Part shown: positions 7,664 to 48,953 of the stretch, piece after piece
How positions within the stretch are numbered: position 1 is the first letter of the stretch
How the letters are laid out: each line of letters starts with the position of its first letter
From: Alphaproteobacteria bacterium
GTDB lineage: Bacteria > Pseudomonadota > Alphaproteobacteria > RF32 > CAG-239
Assembly (NCBI GenBank): GCA_045603405.1
Contig: JAZUMA010000015.1
Location: 54,933-118,932 of the forward strand
Length of the DNA stretch: 64,000 nucleotides
Direction: 5' to 3'
Made by a program: the position numbers and the translations under genes
The notes under the pieces: generated by a model
What the model saw: the letters and a program-made list of their open reading frames with translations, nothing else
Database searches by the model: none
Told to the model about the DNA's origin: nothing

Positions 7664-8647
7664 TTACCTGCCACTGTTAATATCTTTTACTCCTCTTACC
7701 ACATTCTTTTGCACAGCATCATGAATTTTCTTTGCTTCTTTCCATTCTATTGCGCGCTTCGTCAGATATTTTATGCCTTCTTCATATGCTTTCTTGTCTT
7801 TCTGCTTATCTAGCACAACTTCATACACAAGACTTTTATCTTTTTTAACCTCTCTAAGTTGTTCTCTTAAATACTTTTCTCTTTTTTTACACATCTCATA
7901 TTCTTGTTGCAAAACACTATCAGGTACCTGTATATCTTCTCTAATACCATTTTTTCTAATATTATTATTTTCATTATTTTCACTTTTTTCCATAATCCTT
8001 CTTTCCACCGGTGACCACGCTTTATTCATTGCCATATTTTGCCGAATTAAATCAATTGCATTTACCCCTTTCTTATTTTCTCTATTAACATCAACACCTT
8101 TCTGTTCGGCCAAATATTTAGAAATTTCATACGCAGAAGCAAAATTTTTATTTTGCAATGCCAACATTAAACCTGTATTTCCATCTTTATCAACTGCATT
8201 CAAATTAGCGATTTTTAATGCTTCCACCACATCCTTTTTTTGACCTGTCTTACAAGCTTTCAAAAAACCATCATCATACTTCTTCTGGTACACAGACAGT
8301 TTTTCTTTAATTGTTTCCATCCTTTCCTTTAGCTCGTAAATTTCCTCAAATATCTTTTCTCTCTTTTCCGCTGAACTCGTTTTCGATGCATAAAAATAAT
8401 TGTGACTAGCATACGTATAATCCGCATCACTATATTCCCTTTTAAAAGCCTCAAATATTTCATAATCAGTAACCGAATCAGTAATCGATTGATCTTCAGA
8501 CTGATTTCCACAACTTATTGCCGTTAAACTCGCGCCACCGATTAACAAAGGAACAGCAACGCTCCCTGCTTTCTTCTTTAATTTCCTCGCTTTATTCTTC
8601 AGATCGTTTATTTTTTTCTTTACTTTTTCTTTTACGATTTTACTCAT
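7664..8647 (-). CDS. ankyrin-repeat protein with long basic N-region, lipobox-like LTAISC and coiled-coil segments (probable secreted/surface effector-like protein)
   Basis: 327 aa; ANK consensus GNTGLMLALQNKNFASAYEISKYLAEQKGVDVNRENKKGVNAIDLI; N-terminus MSKIVKEKVKKKINDLKNKARKLKKKAGSVAVPLLIGGASLTAISCGN; RBS AAAGGAG upstream. Confidence 0.75.
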   Translation of the reverse strand: MSKIVKEKVKKKINDLKNKARKLKKKAGSVAVPLLIGGASLTAISCGNQSEDQSITDSVTDYEIFEAFKREYSDADYTYASHNYFYASKTSSAEKREKIFEEIYELKERMETIKEKLSVYQKKYDDGFLKACKTGQKKDVVEALKIANLNAVDKDGNTGLMLALQNKNFASAYEISKYLAEQKGVDVNRENKKGVNAIDLIRQNMAMNKAWSPVERRIMEKSENNENNNIRKNGIREDIQVPDSVLQQEYEMCKKREKYLREQLREVKKDKSLVYEVVLDKQKDKKAYEEGIKYLTKRAIEWKEAKKIHDAVQKNVVRGVKDINSGR

Positions 8648-8955
8648 TTTCTTTCTCCTTTAGTTTAGACAGCACAAAAAATCCCGCAAAGAGCCACCCT
8701 CTTTACGAGATATTAAATCTGCCTGATTGTTGGTTAATTTTTCTCCCGGCAACACCTCTACATGTATGTATGTATGTATGTATGTATGTATGTATGTATG
8801 TATAAATCAATGACTTAGTGCTTTGCGAAGTCACAGCCCTATTCATCTTAATATTTAACATACTCCCACACATGGCATTCCCCTAGCTTTCACAACTATG
8901 CTAGAATAATACCATAAAAAAAACGTTAACGCAACAAAAAAAACATCACCTCTCT
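8640..8955. repeat. Repeat family A copy 1: ~300-bp duplicated 5' region (promoter/5'UTR/first codons MSK) shared with 34565-34870
   Basis: Near-identical blocks ttctcctttagtttagacagca(c/t)aaaaaatcccgcaaaga..., ..gacttagtgctttgc(g/a)aagtcac.gcc.tattcatcttaatat.taac..., ..ataaaaaaaacgttaac.caa.aaaaaaa in both copies, each immediately upstream of a minus-strand gene start. Confidence 0.75.
8762..8801. repeat. (ATGT)10 tetranucleotide microsatellite inside repeat family A copy 1, ~115-155 bp upstream of the ankyrin gene start
   Basis: catgtatgtatgtatgtatgtatgtatgtatgtatgtatgtataaatc read directly; paralogous copy at 34689-34722 has (ATGT)5 followed by (AT)5. Confidence 0.9.
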
Positions 8956-9075
8956 TCTTCCCCGTCATCCCTCTCGGGCGACTAATGTCGGCCGAGTCAA
9001 GGGATCTCCGCCCTCTCTCCAAGGGTAACATCTTCCCGTCACCACTCTCTCTTTCCGTCATTCCATCTTCCGTTA
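8950..9075. repeat. Repeat family C copy 1 (RPE-like, CT-rich, ORF-compatible element)
   Basis: Core caagggatctccgccctctctccaagggtaacatct (8998-9033) is identical to 38635-38670; minus-strand frame encodes MLPLERGRRSLD in both copies. Confidence 0.6.
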
Positions 9076-9327: not shown

Positions 9328-9404
9328 GGCGGACGTAGCTCAGTTGGTAGAGCCCCGGTTTGTGGTACCGGTTGTCGTGAGTTCGAGCCTCATCGTCCGC
9401 CCCA
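9328..9404 (+). tRNA. tRNA-His (GUG) with encoded G-1 and CCA
   Basis: g-GCGGACG TA GCTC AGTTGGTA GAGC C CCGGT TTGTGGT ACCGG TTGTC GTGAG TTCGAGC CTCAT CGTCCGC C CCA; 7-bp acceptor perfectly paired, anticodon loop TT-GTG-GT, extra 5' G opposite discriminator C (His hallmark). Confidence 0.88.
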
Positions 9405-9434: not shown

Positions 9435-9917
9435 TTAATGCCGCTGAAAGATTTTATGATTTACCGGTCTGTGTTCGTGTTTTTCAATATTTTTCCTATC
9501 TAACGGCTGAGCATGGCTTTGCTTTACATTATCATGCGAAGTTCTGCTTTTATCCGGCCTGTTCTTAGGAACATCATGCGAAGGTCTATCCTTTCTTATC
9601 TCATTCTTATGAACATCATGATGTTTATCATGCTCATGCTTTTTATCTATATGTTTTTTATCTTCATAATGCTTATCATGCACCGGTTTTTTATATTTAT
9701 AGTCAGATTTGTGATGCTTATAATGATGATGCTTCGGTGCCGGCGGACGATGATAATAATCCGTAGCCCATTCATAACTGCCAACCGGATAAAGATCATA
9801 AGAAGAATAGGAATAATAAGAAGAAGAATACAACTCATCATCAGGGACAACAATACATCCGCTCAATCCTGCTCCCACCACAAACAACACAAACAACGTT
9901 TTCACTTTTTTAATCAT
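9435..9917 (-). CDS. His/Lys-rich lipoprotein (signal peptide + LSGC lipobox, Tyr/Ser-rich segment, then long HxxH/DKKH-rich tail)
   Basis: 160 aa MIKKVKTLFVLFVVGAGLSGC...HHHYKHHKSDYKYKKPVHDKHYEDKKHIDKKHEHDKHHDVHKNE...; antisense 151-aa ORF considered spurious. Confidence 0.55.
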   Translation of the reverse strand: MIKKVKTLFVLFVVGAGLSGCIVVPDDELYSSSYYSYSSYDLYPVGSYEWATDYYHRPPAPKHHHYKHHKSDYKYKKPVHDKHYEDKKHIDKKHEHDKHHDVHKNEIRKDRPSHDVPKNRPDKSRTSHDNVKQSHAQPLDRKNIEKHEHRPVNHKIFQRH

Positions 9918-20289: not shown

Positions 20290-20595
20290 TATGAAAAATG
20301 GCGGAAATTTTGAGCTAATAGAGATGGGTACAAGGGAAACCAAAATTTTAATGTATACCAATAAAGCGAAAAATTTGAGATGGATAGAAGTGAATGTCCG
20401 ATACATAAATGGCAGAAAATTTTGAGCTAATAAAGATGGCTACGAGGGAAACCAAAATTTTAATGTATACCCATAAAGCGAAAAATTTGAGATGGATAGA
20501 AGTGAATGTCCGGTGGCAAAAATTTTAGTTTACATCGTAGTAAATGAATTTTTGCCAATCCGGCCTCCATTCACGATTAGACACTCAAATTTTAT
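20290..20595. repeat. Repeat family B copy 1: two tandem ~110-bp units plus terminal hairpin between convergent pnp and pfkA
   Basis: Units ggc.gaaaattttgagctaata.agatgg.tac.agggaaaccaaaattttaatgtatacc.ataaagcgaaaaatttgagatggatagaagtgaatgtcc x2, then imperfect inverted arm ccattcacgattagacactcaaattt. Confidence 0.7.
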
Positions 20596-27858: not shown

Positions 27859-27951
27859 ACCATAAAAATTTTTAAGTTATAACAAAAAAAATTAAAACTA
27901 ACGAGATACTATCATTTTTTGACAATTCTGTCAACACAAAAAATATAAAAA

Positions 27952-28285
27952 AATGATGATTGTCGAGCCTCCTCGACTTTGGGATGGATAGAAGTGAATG
28001 CCTTGTGGTAGAAATTTTAGATACACAAAAAAGTAATGGGTGTCGAGCCTCCTCGACTTTGAGATGGATAGAAGTGAATGTCTTCTGACATAAATTTTAG
28101 TGTACATAGAAGTACATGAATTTATGTCATGAAGCACCATTCACAATTTAGACGCTCTCCATACGAAATTAAAGGAAATTTGAGATGGATAGAAGTGAAT
28201 GTCTTCTGACATAAATTTTAGTGTACATAGAAGTACATGAATTTATGTCATGAAGCACCATTCACAATTTAGACGCTCAAATTTC
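27952..28285. repeat. Repeat family B copy 2: gtcgagcctcctcgac mini-palindromes and two tandem ~115-bp hairpin units
   Basis: Unit ttgagatggatagaagtgaatgtcttctgacataaattttagtgtacatagaagtacatgaatttatgtcatgaagcaccattcacaatttagacgctc occurs twice (28060-28165, 28178-28283); arms tgacataaatt/aatttatgtca and gtgaatg/cattcac are inverted. Confidence 0.75.
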
Positions 28286-30757: not shown

Positions 30758-30830
30758 AAAAAAAAGCAGGCTTTTATTTTAAGCCTGCTTTTTTTCGTAT
30801 TCGTTCCATTTGTTCTGATAGATACGCCAC
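30758..30830. repeat. terminator-hairpin direct repeat copy 1 (partner at 31781-31850)
   Basis: aaaaaaaagcaggcttttattttaagcctgctttttttcgtattcgttccatttgttct versus aaaaaaagcaggcttttattttaagcctacttttttgtattcatttcatttgttct; palindromic stem agcaggc/gcctgct followed by T-run (bidirectional terminator). Confidence 0.7.
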
Positions 30831-31013
30831 ACATCCTTGCGCGTGAGCAACATATTCCATATCTAGTGGCTTCTTTCTCTCTGCCACAGTTGCATAGCAC
30901 AGTATGAGTAGCACAGATGCCAAATACTCCTCCAATTCAGTGCAACAAGTCATCTTATCCTCTAGCTCATCAATAAGCTCTTCAAGACCTGTGGCTTCTT
31001 TTTGATGATACAT
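30774..31013 (-). CDS. small hypothetical ORF overlapping 3' end of upstream ORF (possible frameshifted continuation)
   Basis: 79 aa; overlaps 30962-31741 by 52 nt in another frame; C-terminus encoded by terminator hairpin. Confidence 0.25.
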   Translation of the reverse strand: MYHQKEATGLEELIDELEDKMTCCTELEEYLASVLLILCYATVAERKKPLDMEYVAHAQGCVAYLSEQMERIRKKAGLK

Positions 31014-31741
31014 GAATTGATATTTCCCATAACACTACAAATCTCATTCCGCTCTTCGTCAGAAAGGTATAACATGCATGAGAACATAATTACACTGTTA
31101 ACAAGATTCTTCGCTACTTCGATATCAATGTCTTTAACAGACACCATCATAGCCAATTCACGTTTACATACCATCATTCCAAATGGCAGTGCAATCTCAA
31201 CAAGTTCACGCTTCTGCGCATCTGTTGTATGATACATGATGTCCATGTGCGAGAAGCATGCCATTTTCCCCAAAAGATTGATCGCCATCTTGCTGGAATA
31301 ATTCCTATACAGGTGAGACGTGACCTGTCTATAAACCTTCAGACGAAACGATACTTCGTCTTCCGGCTTACAAAATACCGGGTCTACCCACGAAAACTGC
31401 TCTATCCACGCCTGCAATCTTGATTGCTGTGCTGCAGACTCATCATTTTGAGAAAGCAATTCATAAACTTTCCTCATCTTAGCAATCAAATTTTTTATAA
31501 ACCAAGGCTGTTCATCATTGATAATGATGTTCTTCACCAAAAGTTCAAAAACTGTGAGGAGAAACTCAACCTCTTCTTTTTTAATTGTATTCATACCTAA
31601 AAATAACCGGCAAAACCTCCTTGAACCTGCACCGCCGAAAGCACAGAGGAAAATAATAATACTAGAAACTATAACGACTATACATTTTTTCAGAATTTTG
31701 TCAAGTTTAAATTTATCTAAGTTTCTCTCTTTAACAACCAA
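30962..31741 (-). CDS. hypothetical protein
   Basis: 259-aa ORF, N-terminal TM segment; no family recognised. Confidence 0.4.
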   Translation of the reverse strand: MVVKERNLDKFKLDKILKKCIVVIVSSIIIFLCAFGGAGSRRFCRLFLGMNTIKKEEVEFLLTVFELLVKNIIINDEQPWFIKNLIAKMRKVYELLSQNDESAAQQSRLQAWIEQFSWVDPVFCKPEDEVSFRLKVYRQVTSHLYRNYSSKMAINLLGKMACFSHMDIMYHTTDAQKRELVEIALPFGMMVCKRELAMMVSVKDIDIEVAKNLVNSVIMFSCMLYLSDEERNEICSVMGNINSCIIKKKPQVLKSLLMS

Positions 31742-31924
31742 AGGAATATCGTGCCTACTCGATATATCTGCTTATCCTACCAACAAAAAAAGCAGGCTTT
31801 TATTTTAAGCCTACTTTTTTGTATTCATTTCATTTGTTCTATCTCTTCATAGACCTGTGTTTTTTTTTCGGCGATATATAAAAAAATCATCTCTGAATAA
31901 GAAGATTTTTATACAATTAGCTGT

Positions 31925-33997: not shown

Positions 33998-34576
33998 TTA
34001 TTTGCTTTTATTACCAAACACCATACCTTTCACATCTCTATATAAAGCTTCTGTGCGTTCCCTTCTTATCCTTTCCTTTGCTTCTTTTTGTCTTTCTTCT
34101 ATCTCTTGCTCTTCTCCTTCTTTCCTACGTTTAACTCTTCTCTCTTTTACTTCTTCTCTGGTCATACCTTTTTGCGCTAACTTGTAATCTTTTCTATGCT
34201 TAGGAGCTCTTAATATTTCATCTCCAACTATCTTGAGCAAATATCTTGTCAATTGCGCATTAAAAGCACTTCTATCTTCCTCAGGTTTTTCAGGACCTAC
34301 ACTTTTCATTTTTAAAGTACTAAGCATTAAACAATCTAAGGAATATGGATCTTTTGAAACTGTGCGTTGTGTAACTGTCTTAACAAAACTATCAGAAACA
34401 CCTTCTCTCCCCATGCTAACTTCAATTCTCATACTAAGAGAAGTTTTTTTAATATCCATCTCAAAAGTTATATCTCTATTTTTATCGTATATTTTATAAT
34501 GGCGACCATCTTTCCCCCTTATTACTCTTTCTATTGTATAATTTTTATCATCTCTGATTTCTTCCTCTTTACTCAT
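33998..34576 (-). CDS. hypothetical highly charged protein (KR/E-rich C-terminus), driven by repeat family A copy 2
   Basis: 192 aa MSKEEEIRDDKNYTIERVIRGKDGRHYKIYD...; RBS AAAGGAG; shares 5' region and first codons MSK with ankyrin gene. Confidence 0.5.
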   Translation of the reverse strand: MSKEEEIRDDKNYTIERVIRGKDGRHYKIYDKNRDITFEMDIKKTSLSMRIEVSMGREGVSDSFVKTVTQRTVSKDPYSLDCLMLSTLKMKSVGPEKPEEDRSAFNAQLTRYLLKIVGDEILRAPKHRKDYKLAQKGMTREEVKERRVKRRKEGEEQEIEERQKEAKERIRRERTEALYRDVKGMVFGNKSK

Positions 34577-34870
34577 CTTTTTTCTCCTTTAGTTTAGACA
34601 GCATAAAAAATCCCGCAAAGAACCCCATCTTTACGAAATTTCAGAACTACCGAATTGTTAATTAAATTTTGCTCGGCAACGCACTTACATGTATGTATGT
34701 ATGTATGTATGCATATATATATAAAGACTTAGTGCTTTGCAAAGTCACCGCCTTATTCATCTTAATATCTAACCGACATTCACACATAGCATAACCCTAG
34801 CCTTCATAATTATACTAGGATTATATCATAAAAAAAACGTTAACACAATAAAAAAATATCTCCACCATTT
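34565..34870. repeat. Repeat family A copy 2 (paralogous 5' region), containing (ATGT)5 + (AT)5 at 34689-34722
   Basis: Aligned by eye to 8640-8955 at ~85-90% identity outside the microsatellite. Confidence 0.75.
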
Positions 34871-34959
34871 TTCAAAGATACCGCTTAACTCAACAACCTG
34901 ATTAGTGCTATACAAACCCTATTTAAAACCGAAAAAACTTTCAATTTGAGAGTTTTTAA

Positions 34960-35160
34960 AAGGTGTACATAAAGGAGCAATTATGCAATCATGACTGTAC
35001 TAAACAATATTTAAACTAAAAAATCACTCTTTAAGGAGCGATTTTTGCCTAGAGCTTCTTAAAGCGCAGTGCTGGAAGCAAAATTGCGACTGCGGTGTAC
35101 AAAAAAGCGTACATAAAGGAGCAATTGTGCAATCATGACTGTGCTTTAAGAAGCTCCCCC
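34960..35160. repeat. palindromic/direct-repeat structured element immediately downstream of ychF stop
   Basis: Direct repeat gtacataaaggagcaatt.tgcaatcatgactgt.ct at 34964-35002 and 35107-35145; inverted repeat agagcttcttaaagc (35051-65) / gctttaagaagctc (35143-56); inner stem cgcagt...actgcg. Confidence 0.55.
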
Positions 35161-38627: not shown

Positions 38628-38720
38628 CAAAAATCAAGGGATCTCCGCCCTCTCTCCAAGGGTAACATCTCCCCCTCTTCCACATCATTCTGTCCCTTCA
38701 CTCCAAGGGGGTGCTCTCTA
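38628..38720. repeat. Repeat family C copy 2 (RPE-like) abutting the 5' end of gene 38047-38610
   Basis: Core 38635-38670 identical to 8998-9033; CT-rich tail. Confidence 0.6.
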
Positions 38721-38721
38721 A

Positions 38722-38875
38722 AAAGCACAAAAGTGATGGGTGTCGAGCCTCCTCAACTAAAGGCAGAAAATTTTGAGCTAATAAAGATGGCTACGAGGGA
38801 AACCAAAATTTTAGTGTACATAGTAGTACATGAATTTTGGTTTACCCGAAGTAACCGCTTTAGAAGCCAAAATTT
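38722..38875. repeat. Repeat family B copy 3 (gtcgagcctcctc module + hairpin unit with different stem arms)
   Basis: gggaaaccaaaatttt-agtgtacatagtagtacatg-aattttggtttaccc: loop nearly identical to copy 2 loop, but stem arms differ and still pair (covariation). Confidence 0.7.
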
Positions 38876-47529: not shown

Positions 47530-48093
47530 TTAAATTTTCAAAACCATTTCAACAAAGTTTTGTAAATATTGTTTTCGATTCTGCTGATAATCAAGGTAAT
47601 ATGCATGCTCCCAAACATCAATATTAAACAACACATCATACCCCAAAGGAAGCGGTGTATCACCATTTCTGGTTGAAATTATGTCATAATTTCCCTGTTT
47701 ATCTTTAACGAGCCACACCCAACCGCTGCCAAACAACTTAACGCCTTCATCAACCAATTGTTTAACAAAGGAGAATCCATCTCCGAATTGACTGATAATT
47801 TCATCTTTAACTGCTGGTTTTAATTTATCCCACACCCCGAAAGACTGCCAATAAATATTATGATTATAAACCTGTCCGGCATTATTATGCAGTACCTGAA
47901 AAGCCGGATTATCAAACGTTTTAACAATAATTTCCTCAAGTGTCATCTCTGCAAATTCTGTTCCTTTAATCAACTCATTAACTTTATCAACATATGCGCG
48001 ATGATGTTTTCCATAATGTATTTTAACAGTTTCTTTTGAAACAGCCGGTTCTAACGTATTTTCTGCAAATGGTAATTTTATCAATTCCAGCAT
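47530..48093 (-). CDS. sodB: Fe/Mn superoxide dismutase
   Basis: 187 aa; HYGKHH...DVWEHAYYLDYQNRR signature. Confidence 0.85.
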   Translation of the reverse strand: MLELIKLPFAENTLEPAVSKETVKIHYGKHHRAYVDKVNELIKGTEFAEMTLEEIIVKTFDNPAFQVLHNNAGQVYNHNIYWQSFGVWDKLKPAVKDEIISQFGDGFSFVKQLVDEGVKLFGSGWVWLVKDKQGNYDIISTRNGDTPLPLGYDVLFNIDVWEHAYYLDYQQNRKQYLQNFVEMVLKI

Positions 48094-48266
48094 TTTTTCC
48101 TCCTAAAAATTTTATTTTCTCATTCAAATATACAATTAAGTAACTAAATTAAAAAGGTATTTTAAATTTGTTAACAATTATTAACAACCCCCATAACAAT
48201 GATTCACAAATAAAATTTATGTATTATTATACAAATTAACAATAAACAAAACGGAGAGGAAAAACA

Positions 48267-48953
48267 ATGAGAGTTTTATTGATTGAAGACGATTACGCAG
48301 TCTCCCAAAGCGTTGAAACAATCTTAAAAAAAGAAGGCATGGTCGTAGATACCACAGATGACGGCGAAGACGGATTAGATTGCGGAAAATTATATGATTA
48401 TGACATCATCATCTTAGATTTAAATCTACCTGGTATGAATGGTTATGAAGTATTAAAGAGTTTACGCAATGCCAAAATTTCCACCCCTGTCTTAATTTTG
48501 TCAGGTTTATACGAACCGGATAAAAAGGTTAAAGGTTTGGGCTATGGCGCAGATGATTATTTAACAAAACCATTTAACAAAGAAGAATTGTTAGCGCGTA
48601 TTCAAGCCATTGTTCGTCGTTCCAAAGGTCATTCCAATTCTGTTATTCAAACCGGTCTCGTTGCTGTTAATTTGGATACACAAACTGTTTCCGTCGCCGG
48701 TAAAGATTTACACTTAACCGGTAAAGAATACGGCATTATGGAATTGTTATCATTGCGCAAAGGTTCAACTTTGAATAAAGAGCAATTCTTAAATCACCTC
48801 TATGGTGGTATTGATGAACCGGAATTAAAAATTATTGACGTGTTTATCTGTAAACTCCGTAAAAAACTGGAAAAAGCTTCCGGCGGTAAAAACTATATTG
48901 AAACTGTTTGGGGCAGAGGCTATATCTTAAAAGACCCTGACGAACACAAATAA
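48267..48953 (+). CDS. ctrA: cell-cycle response regulator CtrA (OmpR family)
   Basis: 228 aa; MRVLLIEDD...[28 protein letters not shown]...[51 protein letters not shown] is near-identical in pattern to alphaproteobacterial CtrA. Confidence 0.85.

Follow-up and report, generated by a model that had tools for sequence, protein, structure and literature searches.

To our knowledge, phase variation through a repeat tract in a leader open reading frame (ORF) and ribosome-mediated anti-termination has been experimentally established only for the pilus loci of Streptococcus gallolyticus. In the pil1 locus, 22 GCAGA repeats are located in a leader ORF of 38 codons, upstream of a stem-loop of -18.7 kcal/mol (Danne et al., 2014; PMC3894217). 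A leader stop codon 39 base pairs (bp) upstream of this hairpin leads to low pilus expression, whereas a stop codon within or beyond the hairpin leads to high expression through ribosome-mediated anti-termination, and the number of repeats differs among strains (PMC3894217). With a reporter in Escherichia coli, a frameshift of one nucleotide (nt) that brought a stop codon to 5 instead of 28 nt before a terminator lowered termination from about 90% to less than 10%, and distances of more than approximately 27 nt between stop codon and terminator gave full termination (PMC4824070). Likewise, in the pyrBI attenuator of E. coli, a leader ORF runs through an intrinsic terminator located just before the structural gene, and a ribosome that follows closely suppresses termination (PMC4824070). 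Here, we describe a cassette of about 300 bp with a variable (ATGT)n microsatellite that is present in front of two unrelated genes in a stretch of 64,000 nt from an Alphaproteobacteria bacterium (GenBank assembly GCA_045603405.1, contig JAZUMA010000015.1, positions 54,933 to 118,932 of the forward strand; hereafter called the window), and we consider the evidence that it could be a switch of the pil1 type.

Repeats in the promoter spacer represent a classic mechanism of phase variation, examples being the homopolymer and dinucleotide tracts in the -35/-10 spacers of Neisseria and Haemophilus promoters. Distal TAAA repeats in nadA are another example of promoter-type phase variation (PMC2791445). 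Other repeats act inside the transcript. The tetranucleotide tract AGAT(n) located 132 bp upstream of the start codon of uspA2 in Moraxella catarrhalis (PMC7302503) and the (ATCTTTC)n tract of hmw1A in Haemophilus influenzae (PMC12721329) act via the transcript level or an RNase III-processed hairpin, and the resulting expression is graded.

A Duplicated Cassette in Front of Unrelated Genes

The two genes preceded by the cassette, here called the cargo genes, are both located on the minus strand and encode proteins of 327 amino acids (aa; 8647 to 7664) and 192 aa (34576 to 33998). The segments upstream of them, from about 8957 to 8639 (copy A) and from 34869 to 34568 (copy B) on the minus strand, are homologous. 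They are 79.6% identical over 304 columns (blastn), 84% identical over an ungapped stretch of 134 nt and 93% identical over the last 57 nt, which include the Shine-Dalgarno (SD) sequence and the codons ATG AGT AAA. A preliminary description of this DNA had called the two blocks near-identical; the homology is real but the degree of identity was overstated. It had correctly placed the ribosome-binding site (RBS), the 5' leader and the first codons, MSK, inside the shared block, as the homology between copies A and B extends through the SD sequence and ATG AGT AAA and then ends. In the family as a whole, the homology ends at the start codon of the cargo gene, because the cargo of the relative L012, introduced below, starts with MDIS.

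Oligomers of 15 and 20 nt taken from the block have exactly two occurrences in the window, as compared to an expectation of 0.01-0.09, and a profile of the family matches the two blocks with E-values of 1e-77 and 3.5e-69 (nhmmer). Chance similarity is thus excluded, and the two blocks represent a clear duplication. Further copies, the existence of which had been raised as a possibility in the preliminary description, were searched for across the 64-kb window with blastn (word size 7) and with the family profile (nhmmer --max); the block was found twice, with no third copy. The GC content of the window is 36.9%.

The repeats in the two blocks are the only arrays of period 4 identified in the window with Tandem Repeats Finder, and both are located at the same homologous position. 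The program reported (ATGT)10.5 with 100% matches at 8762-8803 in copy A and a degenerate array at 34689-34722 in copy B. Read on the minus strand, which is the coding strand, the microsatellite is (ACAT)10 in copy A (8801 to 8762; (ATGT)n on the plus strand), and (AT)5GCAT (34722 to 34709) followed by (ACAT)5 (34708 to 34689) in copy B. The difference in copy number noted in the preliminary description therefore stands, as do the distances it gave between the tract and the start codon, which are 115-156 nt in copy A and 113-146 nt in copy B.

The Repeat Is Located in a Leader ORF Followed by a Terminator-Like Hairpin

In both copies, the entire repeat tract is contained within a short leader ORF. 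The leader ORF of copy A (8703..8873, read from 8873 to 8703) consists of 56 codons plus a stop codon and would translate the repeat as (YIHT)n. Its ATG is preceded at a distance of 8 nt by the SD-like sequence CTAGG (8886-8882), and the arrangement CTAGG-N8-ATG is conserved in copies A and B, L012 and L002, with AAAGG-N8-ATG in its place in L011. The leader ORF of copy B (34662..34787, read from 34787 to 34662) consists of 41 codons plus a stop codon.

Between the repeat and the RBS of the cargo gene there is a terminator-like hairpin. In copy A it was identified both by a terminator scan and by folding (8675..8711, minus strand), and has 13 bp, a loop of 5 nt, a folding energy of about -17.5 kcal/mol and a following run of six T's. 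The hairpin in copy B (34604..34639, minus strand), identified by folding, has 12 bp and about -12 kcal/mol and is also followed by T6; the consensus terminator scan missed it because it contains only two G-C pairs. The leader stop codon, TAA in copy A, is located in the 5' arm of the hairpin in copy A and 26 nt upstream of the hairpin in copy B. The SD sequence of the cargo gene, AAGGAG, follows after the hairpin in both copies (8645..8660 in copy A, with the SD at 8660-8655 and the ATG of the 327-aa gene at 8647-8645; 34574..34589 in copy B, up to the ATG of the 192-aa gene; both on the minus strand).

These parts are shared with homologs on other contigs. Downstream of the leader ATG there is a variable middle region that ends in an invariant TACATACAT, then GTTGCC...AATTAA, then the hairpin CTCGTAAAGAG-loop-CTCTTTGCGGG with T6 and, about 14 nt later, AGGAGAAA-N3-4-ATG. 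The TACATACAT element, the hairpin with its T6 and the AGGAGAAA-ATG region are kept in copies A and B, L012, L002/L013 and L011. Folding energies of the hairpin range from -11 to -17.5 kcal/mol among all copies, and 93% of the cells are paired in an alignment of seven homologs.

The order of the parts is identical to that in pil1: promoter (predicted in the cassette), leader RBS and ATG, repeat inside the ORF, stem-loop, and RBS and start codon of the regulated gene. As in pil1, the leader ORF is short and preceded by an SD-like motif, the repeat unit is not a multiple of three, alternative positions of the stop codon are available, and the number of repeats varies among relatives. Upstream stops lie 26-50 nt from the hairpin in the cassette and 39 bp from it in pil1, and the stem-loops have folding energies of -12 to -17.5 and -18.7 kcal/mol, respectively. 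We therefore lean toward the interpretation, somewhat better than even in our judgment, that the cassette is an independently evolved leader-peptide/terminator switch of the pil1 type.

An alternative hypothesis is that the cassette is a stand-alone gene of approximately 215-225 nt for a small RNA (sRNA) or small protein, possibly with both functions, and that the cargo is expressed by occasional read-through. A promoter, a transcript of about 200 nt and a terminator directly before a gene is the layout of the Brt sRNA/trp tandems in Bartonella (PMC5387305), which the cassette also resembles in being a lineage-specific unit of about 200 nt that occurs in multiple copies, in the present case before unrelated genes. 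The two show no homology, the cargo genes of the cassette are not helix-turn-helix regulators, and the combination of a leader ORF and a microsatellite is salient only in the cassette described here. Neither block matches an Rfam family: only two tRNAs in the window reach the gathering score in Rfam 15, and searches of both blocks by E-value returned sub-threshold matches to microRNA families and other chance matches, the strongest of which fell on the repeat tract. Nor is there a stable conserved structure outside the terminator. Furthermore, the homology always spans the SD sequence and ATG of the cargo gene and about 14 nt separate the end of the T-run from the SD sequence, which leaves no room for a separate cargo promoter, and some leader stop codons overlap the SD sequence or start codon of the cargo, which suggests coupling. 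We regard a stand-alone gene as very unlikely.

The Leader ORF Is Open Through the Hairpin in Relatives without the Expanded Repeat

Relatives of the cassette were found in contigs from other samples. The Logan and ENA contigs L002, L013 and L014 carry it in front of an ankyrin-like ortholog (47% identical) and have about two ACAT units. The JGI metagenome contig L011 carries it in front of a 442-aa bona fide ankyrin protein and contains no perfect (ACAT)2, only ATACATATAT. In the ENA contig L015, the cassette precedes a 196-aa ortholog of the copy B cargo and has about two units, and in the ENA contig L012 it precedes an unrelated pair of genes for 157-aa and 370-aa proteins and has eight. 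The tract is thus expanded to 10, 5 and 8 units in copy A, copy B and L012, respectively, compared to about 2-3 units in the relatives without expansion. Two contigs with homologs of the ankyrin-like protein, L001 (P0003) and L003 (P0002), were examined as candidates and lack the cassette.

Direct sequence searches recovered few relatives. The 20-mer TGCTGTCTAAACTAAAGGAG had no matches in a collection of species-representative genomes or in metagenome contigs. The 24-mer TCTTTGCGGGATTTTTTNNGCTGT had a single match in the species-representative genomes, in a metagenome-assembled genome of the Syntrophomonadaceae with a GC content of 54%, which was dismissed as a chance match because the similarity is limited to the 24-mer itself. 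The same 24-mer had three matches in the metagenome contigs, of which L011 was the sole genuine homolog. Two scans of viral contigs for cassette motifs returned no matches. Protein look-ups gave no exact record for the window's own proteins, and the YchF protein of the window belongs to a cluster at 90% identity with members mostly from ENA and Logan metagenome contigs, some of which have sample labels that hint at studies of the human gut.

In six homologs without the expanded repeat, the leader ORF (52-59 codons) crosses the hairpin and ends on or near the SD sequence or start codon of the cargo gene. The through-reading leader peptides have 55 aa in L002/L013/L014 (P0021), about 52 aa in L011, 57 aa in L015 (P0024), 58 aa in P0022, 55 aa in P0025 and 59 aa in P0027, which ends with ...RRKK, corresponding to the translated SD region. 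P0022, P0025 and P0027 are represented by protein sequences, and their passage across the hairpin was deduced from the similarity of the C-terminal peptides. When the sequences were shuffled with their dinucleotides preserved, the frame between the ATG and the hairpin stayed open in only 1.8% (L002) and 2.8% (L011) of the shuffles. The leader ORFs pass the hairpin in either of two open frames, which give ...SLRDFLCC... or ...LCGIFCAV..., and those of different lineages are separated by frame-shifting indels. A conserved leader peptide was considered and ruled out by these indels, by the two hairpin frames and by the changes between L002 and L013 that are described in the Discussion. We infer from the sequences that what is conserved is the passage of translation across the terminator to an end at the initiation region of the cargo, rather than the peptide itself.

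The geometry of the leaders in L002, L011 and L015 resembles that of the pyrBI attenuator. Unlike in pyrBI, the cassette is associated with neither pyrimidine genes nor evidence for pausing that is sensitive to uridine triphosphate, there is no homology between the two, and the variable input is a DNA repeat rather than a metabolite.

Each Repeat Unit Shifts the Leader Frame

The ACAT unit has four nucleotides, which is not a multiple of three, so that each unit gained or lost shifts the frame of the leader. In copy A, with the observed n = 10, the stop codon is located in the 5' arm of the hairpin; with n = 9 or 12 the ORF would run through the hairpin to a TAA (8662-8660) that overlaps the main SD sequence, 15 nt before the ATG, and with n = 8 or 11 it would stop about 50 nt upstream. 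In copy B, with the observed n = 5, the ORF stops before the hairpin, as described above; n = 6 (also 3 and 9) would give the through frame and n = 4 or 7 a stop about 50 nt upstream. In L012, the observed n = 8 places the stop codon 49 nt before the hairpin, n = 5 and 11 would likewise place it about 50 nt upstream, and n = 7 or 10 would give the through frame. The leader stop codons past the terminator lie 15-20 nt before the main ATG. The stop codon of copy A is inside the stem, and a ribosome at this position is predicted to still block the formation of the hairpin.

The contig L015 provides a comparison to a close relative, of the kind proposed in the preliminary description. It is syntenic with locus B, with genes for L25, Pth, a 205-aa ORF and YchF, followed by the block, the 196-aa cargo gene and pssA on the opposite strand. 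YchF is 97% and the cargo protein 90% identical to those of the window; at the nucleotide level, the identities are 98.1% for the block, 96.4% for the coding sequence of the cargo, 88.2% for ychF and 89.8% for pssA. The indels between the two blocks are confined to simple-sequence tracts: 20 nt (5 x 4) at the ACAT/AT tract, which is the shorter one in L015, and single T's in two T-tracts. The 20-nt difference puts the leader of L015 in the through frame (57 aa) and that of copy B out of frame (41 aa). Judging from these sequences, tract length is the fastest-changing feature of the cassette and flips its predicted state.

We also observed that the cassette and cargo are more alike between relatives than the flanking housekeeping genes (window 33998-34860 compared to L015 3600-4455). 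Similarly, the block and the ankyrin-like gene are about 99% identical between L002 and L013, as compared to 87% for the adjacent methyltransferase gene. The differences between the cargo genes of these relatives are mostly non-synonymous. This pattern suggests recent lateral exchange of modules that consist of the cassette plus its cargo, rather than purifying selection, as far as can be read from the alignments.

The frame arithmetic also bears on the hypothesis that the tract is a neutral microsatellite in a decayed leader, in which case the expansion of ACAT would have inactivated the through-reading ORF and the level of the cargo would be fixed by leakage through the terminator. Indeed, all three expanded copies (A, B and L012) are out of the through frame, copy B differs from A and L012 by indels of 1 nt downstream of the tract, and the sequence of the leader peptide shows no constraint. 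On the other hand, the through frame can still be reached in one third of the repeat states in each of the three copies, and the indels of B have not abolished it there. The 64 kb contain no tetranucleotide arrays other than the two tracts, which are both found at one functional position, the block is 98% identical where the flanking housekeeping genes are 88-90% identical, and a system with a matching layout has been proven experimentally (PMC3894217). Neutral decay is in our view unlikely, although it retains a real share of the probability.

A Conserved Putative Promoter Is Located Upstream of the Repeat

An alignment of six sequences revealed a conserved order of predicted elements on the coding strand, which consists of T7-8, a -35 element TTGCGK, a spacer of 17 nt and an extended -10 element (TGN)TAWWAT. 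The -35, 17-nt spacer and extended -10 motif is kept in A, B, L012, L002/L013 and L011, that is, in five lineages; the sequence of the spacer varies between lineages while its length is kept, and the window copies have a T8 run inside it. This is the sole promoter-like motif conserved across all homologs. It is located about 100 nt upstream of the repeat and, in all homologs, 26-35 nt upstream of the leader ATG.

In copy A, the elements on the minus strand are a T8 tract just upstream of the -35 (8936..8943; its counterparts are T7 in L012 and in copy B, and T8 in L015), the predicted -35 TTGCGT (8929..8934), of which TTG is invariant in all six aligned homologs, the 17-nt spacer TAACGTTTTTTTTATGG (8912..8928) with a T8 run at 8916-8923, and the predicted extended -10 TGGTATTAT (8906..8914), from which a transcription start site (TSS) near 8899 is predicted. 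In copy B (34820..34856, minus strand), alignment of the motif places T7 at 34856-34850, the -35 TTGTGT at 34848-34843, a 17-nt spacer with T8 at 34837-34830 and the extended -10 TGATATAAT at 34828-34820, with a predicted TSS near 34813. A generic promoter scan made no call on the conserved motif, because its -35 matches the consensus in only three of six positions.

The preliminary description had proposed that the ATGT tract is situated in or next to a promoter, with TTGATT (8805..8810, read from 8810 to 8805 on the minus strand) as its -35, and that slippage alters promoter spacing and thereby creates a contingency locus. TTGATT does abut the tract in copy A and in L012, and promoter-spacer repeats are, as said, a classic mechanism. 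The hexamer is however deleted in copy B and absent from L015, L002 and L011. The promoter scan called no promoter at the position of TTGATT, and no acceptable -10 follows it. A -10 placed 17 nt after TTGATT falls inside the repeat, and the copy number can therefore not alter the spacing between -35 and -10. Scans and inspection of the alignment also gave no conserved candidate for another promoter in the interval from the repeat to the hairpin, and the predicted promoter that all homologs share is located about 100 nt upstream of the tract. We rejected TTGATT as a -35 and find the promoter-spacing model hardly credible. The broader idea of a contingency locus fares better, since the tract differs among the paralogs and from the L015 ortholog.

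The poly-T tracts bracket the -35 in both copies. Between copy B and L015, the spacer tract is T8 versus T7, corresponding to spacers of 17 and 16 nt, and the upstream tract is T7 versus T8. On this comparison, the poly-T differences could be a second, classic source of variation at the level of the promoter. The T8 in the 17-nt spacer and the T7/T8 before the -35, each of which has one T more or fewer in L015 than in the window, are reminiscent of the promoter-spacer systems; unlike in these, the ATGT tract of the cassette is outside the promoter, and runs of seven or eight T's are short for efficient switching.

With the predicted TSS, the tract in copy A would be located at about +99 to +138 of a leader of approximately 237-252 nt. 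Like the repeats of uspA2 and hmw1A, it precedes the start codon by more than 100 nt and would be transcribed in the 5' leader. This raises the possibility that the tract acts as a repeat in the 5' untranslated region, through RNA structure, spacing or stability and without translation of the leader, which would give graded rather than three-state expression. AUGU(G)U motifs at the start of the leader ORF are complementary to the (ACAU)n sequence and pair with it in minimum-free-energy folds, a local hairpin in L002 and L011 has the proto-repeat as its 3' arm, and uspA2 and hmw1A provide precedents (PMC7302503; PMC12721329). Beyond the terminator, however, the folds lack robustness, with z-scores between -1.5 and -2.0, and pairing of (ACAU)n with AUGUGUG is missing from the centroid structures. 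Moreover, an effect on RNA alone gives no reason for the leader ORF to have remained open across the terminator in the six homologs without expansion, and the logic of a leader ORF and a terminator has not been described for uspA2 and hmw1A. We judge this explanation to be distinctly unlikely.

Cargo Genes and Neighboring Elements

The cargo genes known so far encode ankyrin proteins, the charged 192-aa protein and the pair of 157-aa and 370-aa proteins. The 327-aa cargo of copy A had been labeled an ankyrin-repeat lipoprotein in the preliminary description. Support for the ankyrin part is weak in Pfam, with 25.4 bits for Ank_2 against a cut-off of 27.3 bits and 19.6 bits for Ank against 21.1, both sub-threshold; the N-terminus resembles a lipoprotein signal, as judged by reading the sequence. 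The 442-aa cargo of L011 is by comparison an unambiguous ANK protein (E = 3e-78). No homology was found between the 192-aa cargo and the 157-aa cargo of L012. In L012, the second gene of the operon opens with an initiation region, AAGGAGAAAGAAAATGAGTGAA (822-845), that it shares with the 3' end of the cassette, and the MSK/MSE start may thus partly reflect a favored initiation context in this lineage.

Several other repeats occur near the cassettes. A 44-nt repeat is present just upstream of cassette A (8997-9040) and, with 95% identity, at 38634-38677 beside a repeat family at about 38.7 kb. The homology between L012 (1-40) and copy A (window 8960-8990) continues for at least 45 nt upstream of the promoter T-tract. 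The A-type cassettes may carry or abut another repeated element. The interval between ychF and cassette B contains two 44-nt direct repeats that are 91% identical (34958-35001 and 35102-35145), both of which are kept in L015 (3314-3357 and 3458-3502), and a 36-nt inverted repeat with a separation of 33 nt (35052-35156).

Elsewhere in the window, intergenic repeats of about 80-120 nt, tandem or dispersed and 86-100% identical, were observed at 20296-20585, 27940-28278 and 38720-38837, and also in L015 at 269-340. A palindrome, TGTACATAGAAGTACA, is present inside them, together with a GTCGAGCCTCCTCGAC stem, and they have the look of repetitive extragenic palindromic elements or miniature inverted-repeat transposable elements. 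An ORF at 30962-31741 is flanked by two near-identical, palindromic and terminator-like elements of 36 nt, AAAAAAAGCAGGCTTTTATTTTAAGCCTGCTTTTTT (30759-30795 and 31785-31820). Beside tRNA-His (9329-9404) there is a 160-aa ORF on the minus strand (9435-9917) with a lipoprotein-like N-terminus, a His/Lys-rich body, for example HHHYKHHKSDYKYKKPVHDKHYEDKKHIDKKHEHDKHH, and no match in Pfam.

The site between the genes for a DEAD-box helicase and MgsA (window 47530-48953, L001 4437-5903, L011 590-2164) contains different inserts in each sequence. These are the cassette with the 442-aa ankyrin protein in L011, a 145-aa ORF and an ankyrin-like protein without a cassette in L001, and two other ORFs of 187 and 228 aa in the window. 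This site looks like a variable hotspot.

Discussion

We favor, with some reservation, the hypothesis that the cassette is a leader-peptide/terminator switch with a variable repeat as its input. Its parts would be a sigma-70-type promoter with an extended -10, a leader with an SD-like sequence and ATG, an (ACAT)n tract inside the leader ORF, a hairpin with T6, and the SD sequence and start codon of the cargo. In the putative ancestral state, the leader ORF would be read through the hairpin and stop on the SD sequence or start codon of the cargo gene, such that a ribosome trailing the RNA polymerase would block formation of the terminator and pass on to the cargo's start codon. A pre-existing ACATACAT motif may then have expanded into a 4-nt microsatellite in this lineage. 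Slipped-strand mispairing would add or remove units and shift the leader frame, and the stop codon would thereby come to lie some 50 nt upstream of the hairpin, at a nearer position that is either 26 nt upstream or within the 5' arm, or beyond the hairpin. If slippage is frequent, the cargo genes could stochastically alternate between low (terminated) and high (read-through) expression. In the sequences at hand, copy A (n = 10, stop codon in the stem) is predicted to be on or high, and copy B (n = 5, stop codon 26 nt upstream) to be off or low.

Several of our observations weigh against this hypothesis. The SD sequence of the leader (AGG/GGGG) is much weaker than that of the cargo. The leader ORFs of L002 and L013 differ by four non-synonymous and no synonymous changes, which provides no evidence of coding constraint. 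That none of the three expanded copies is in the through frame fits a leader ORF that has decayed after the expansion, and the finding that each of them has one frame out of three without a stop codon between the repeat and the SD sequence is unremarkable, with a chance of about 0.3-0.5 by our own estimate. Among the seven homologs, no hairpin pair changes on both sides, and without such compensatory changes the conservation of the hairpin could reflect another sequence constraint. Finally, copy B and L015 are separated by about 10% genomic divergence, so that the difference between their tracts indicates evolutionary lability, not a high rate of switching.

There are also clear differences from pil1. 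The two systems show no sequence homology, the cargo genes of the cassette are not pilus genes, and the host is unrelated and has a low GC content. The repeat unit in the cassette has 4 nt and 5-10 copies, whereas that in pil1 has 5 nt and 22 copies. Moreover, the cassette occurs in multiple copies before unrelated genes, and its repeat-less relatives show an ORF that always reads through.

A more far-reaching hypothesis, which we put forward tentatively and regard as possible but doubtful, is that the cassette is a portable, plug-in contingency switch that has been placed repeatedly by recombination before unrelated accessory or host-interaction genes in an uncultured, host-associated lineage. 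The relatives would then document how an attenuator that was constitutive and through-translated became a stochastic switch with three states simply by expansion of the ACATACAT motif.

If the cassette is indeed an independent instance of this type of switch, with another repeat unit, in an unrelated bacterium of low GC content and with several cargoes, the mechanism would represent a general solution that has evolved convergently rather than a curiosity. The non-expanded relatives would show, as is rarely possible, the way in which an ordinary attenuator coupled to translation gives rise to such a switch. For the annotation of metagenome-assembled genomes, this would mean that repeats should be looked for in leader ORFs too, beyond promoters and the 5' ends of coding sequences. 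It would also mark the cargo genes as likely targets of fluctuating selection.

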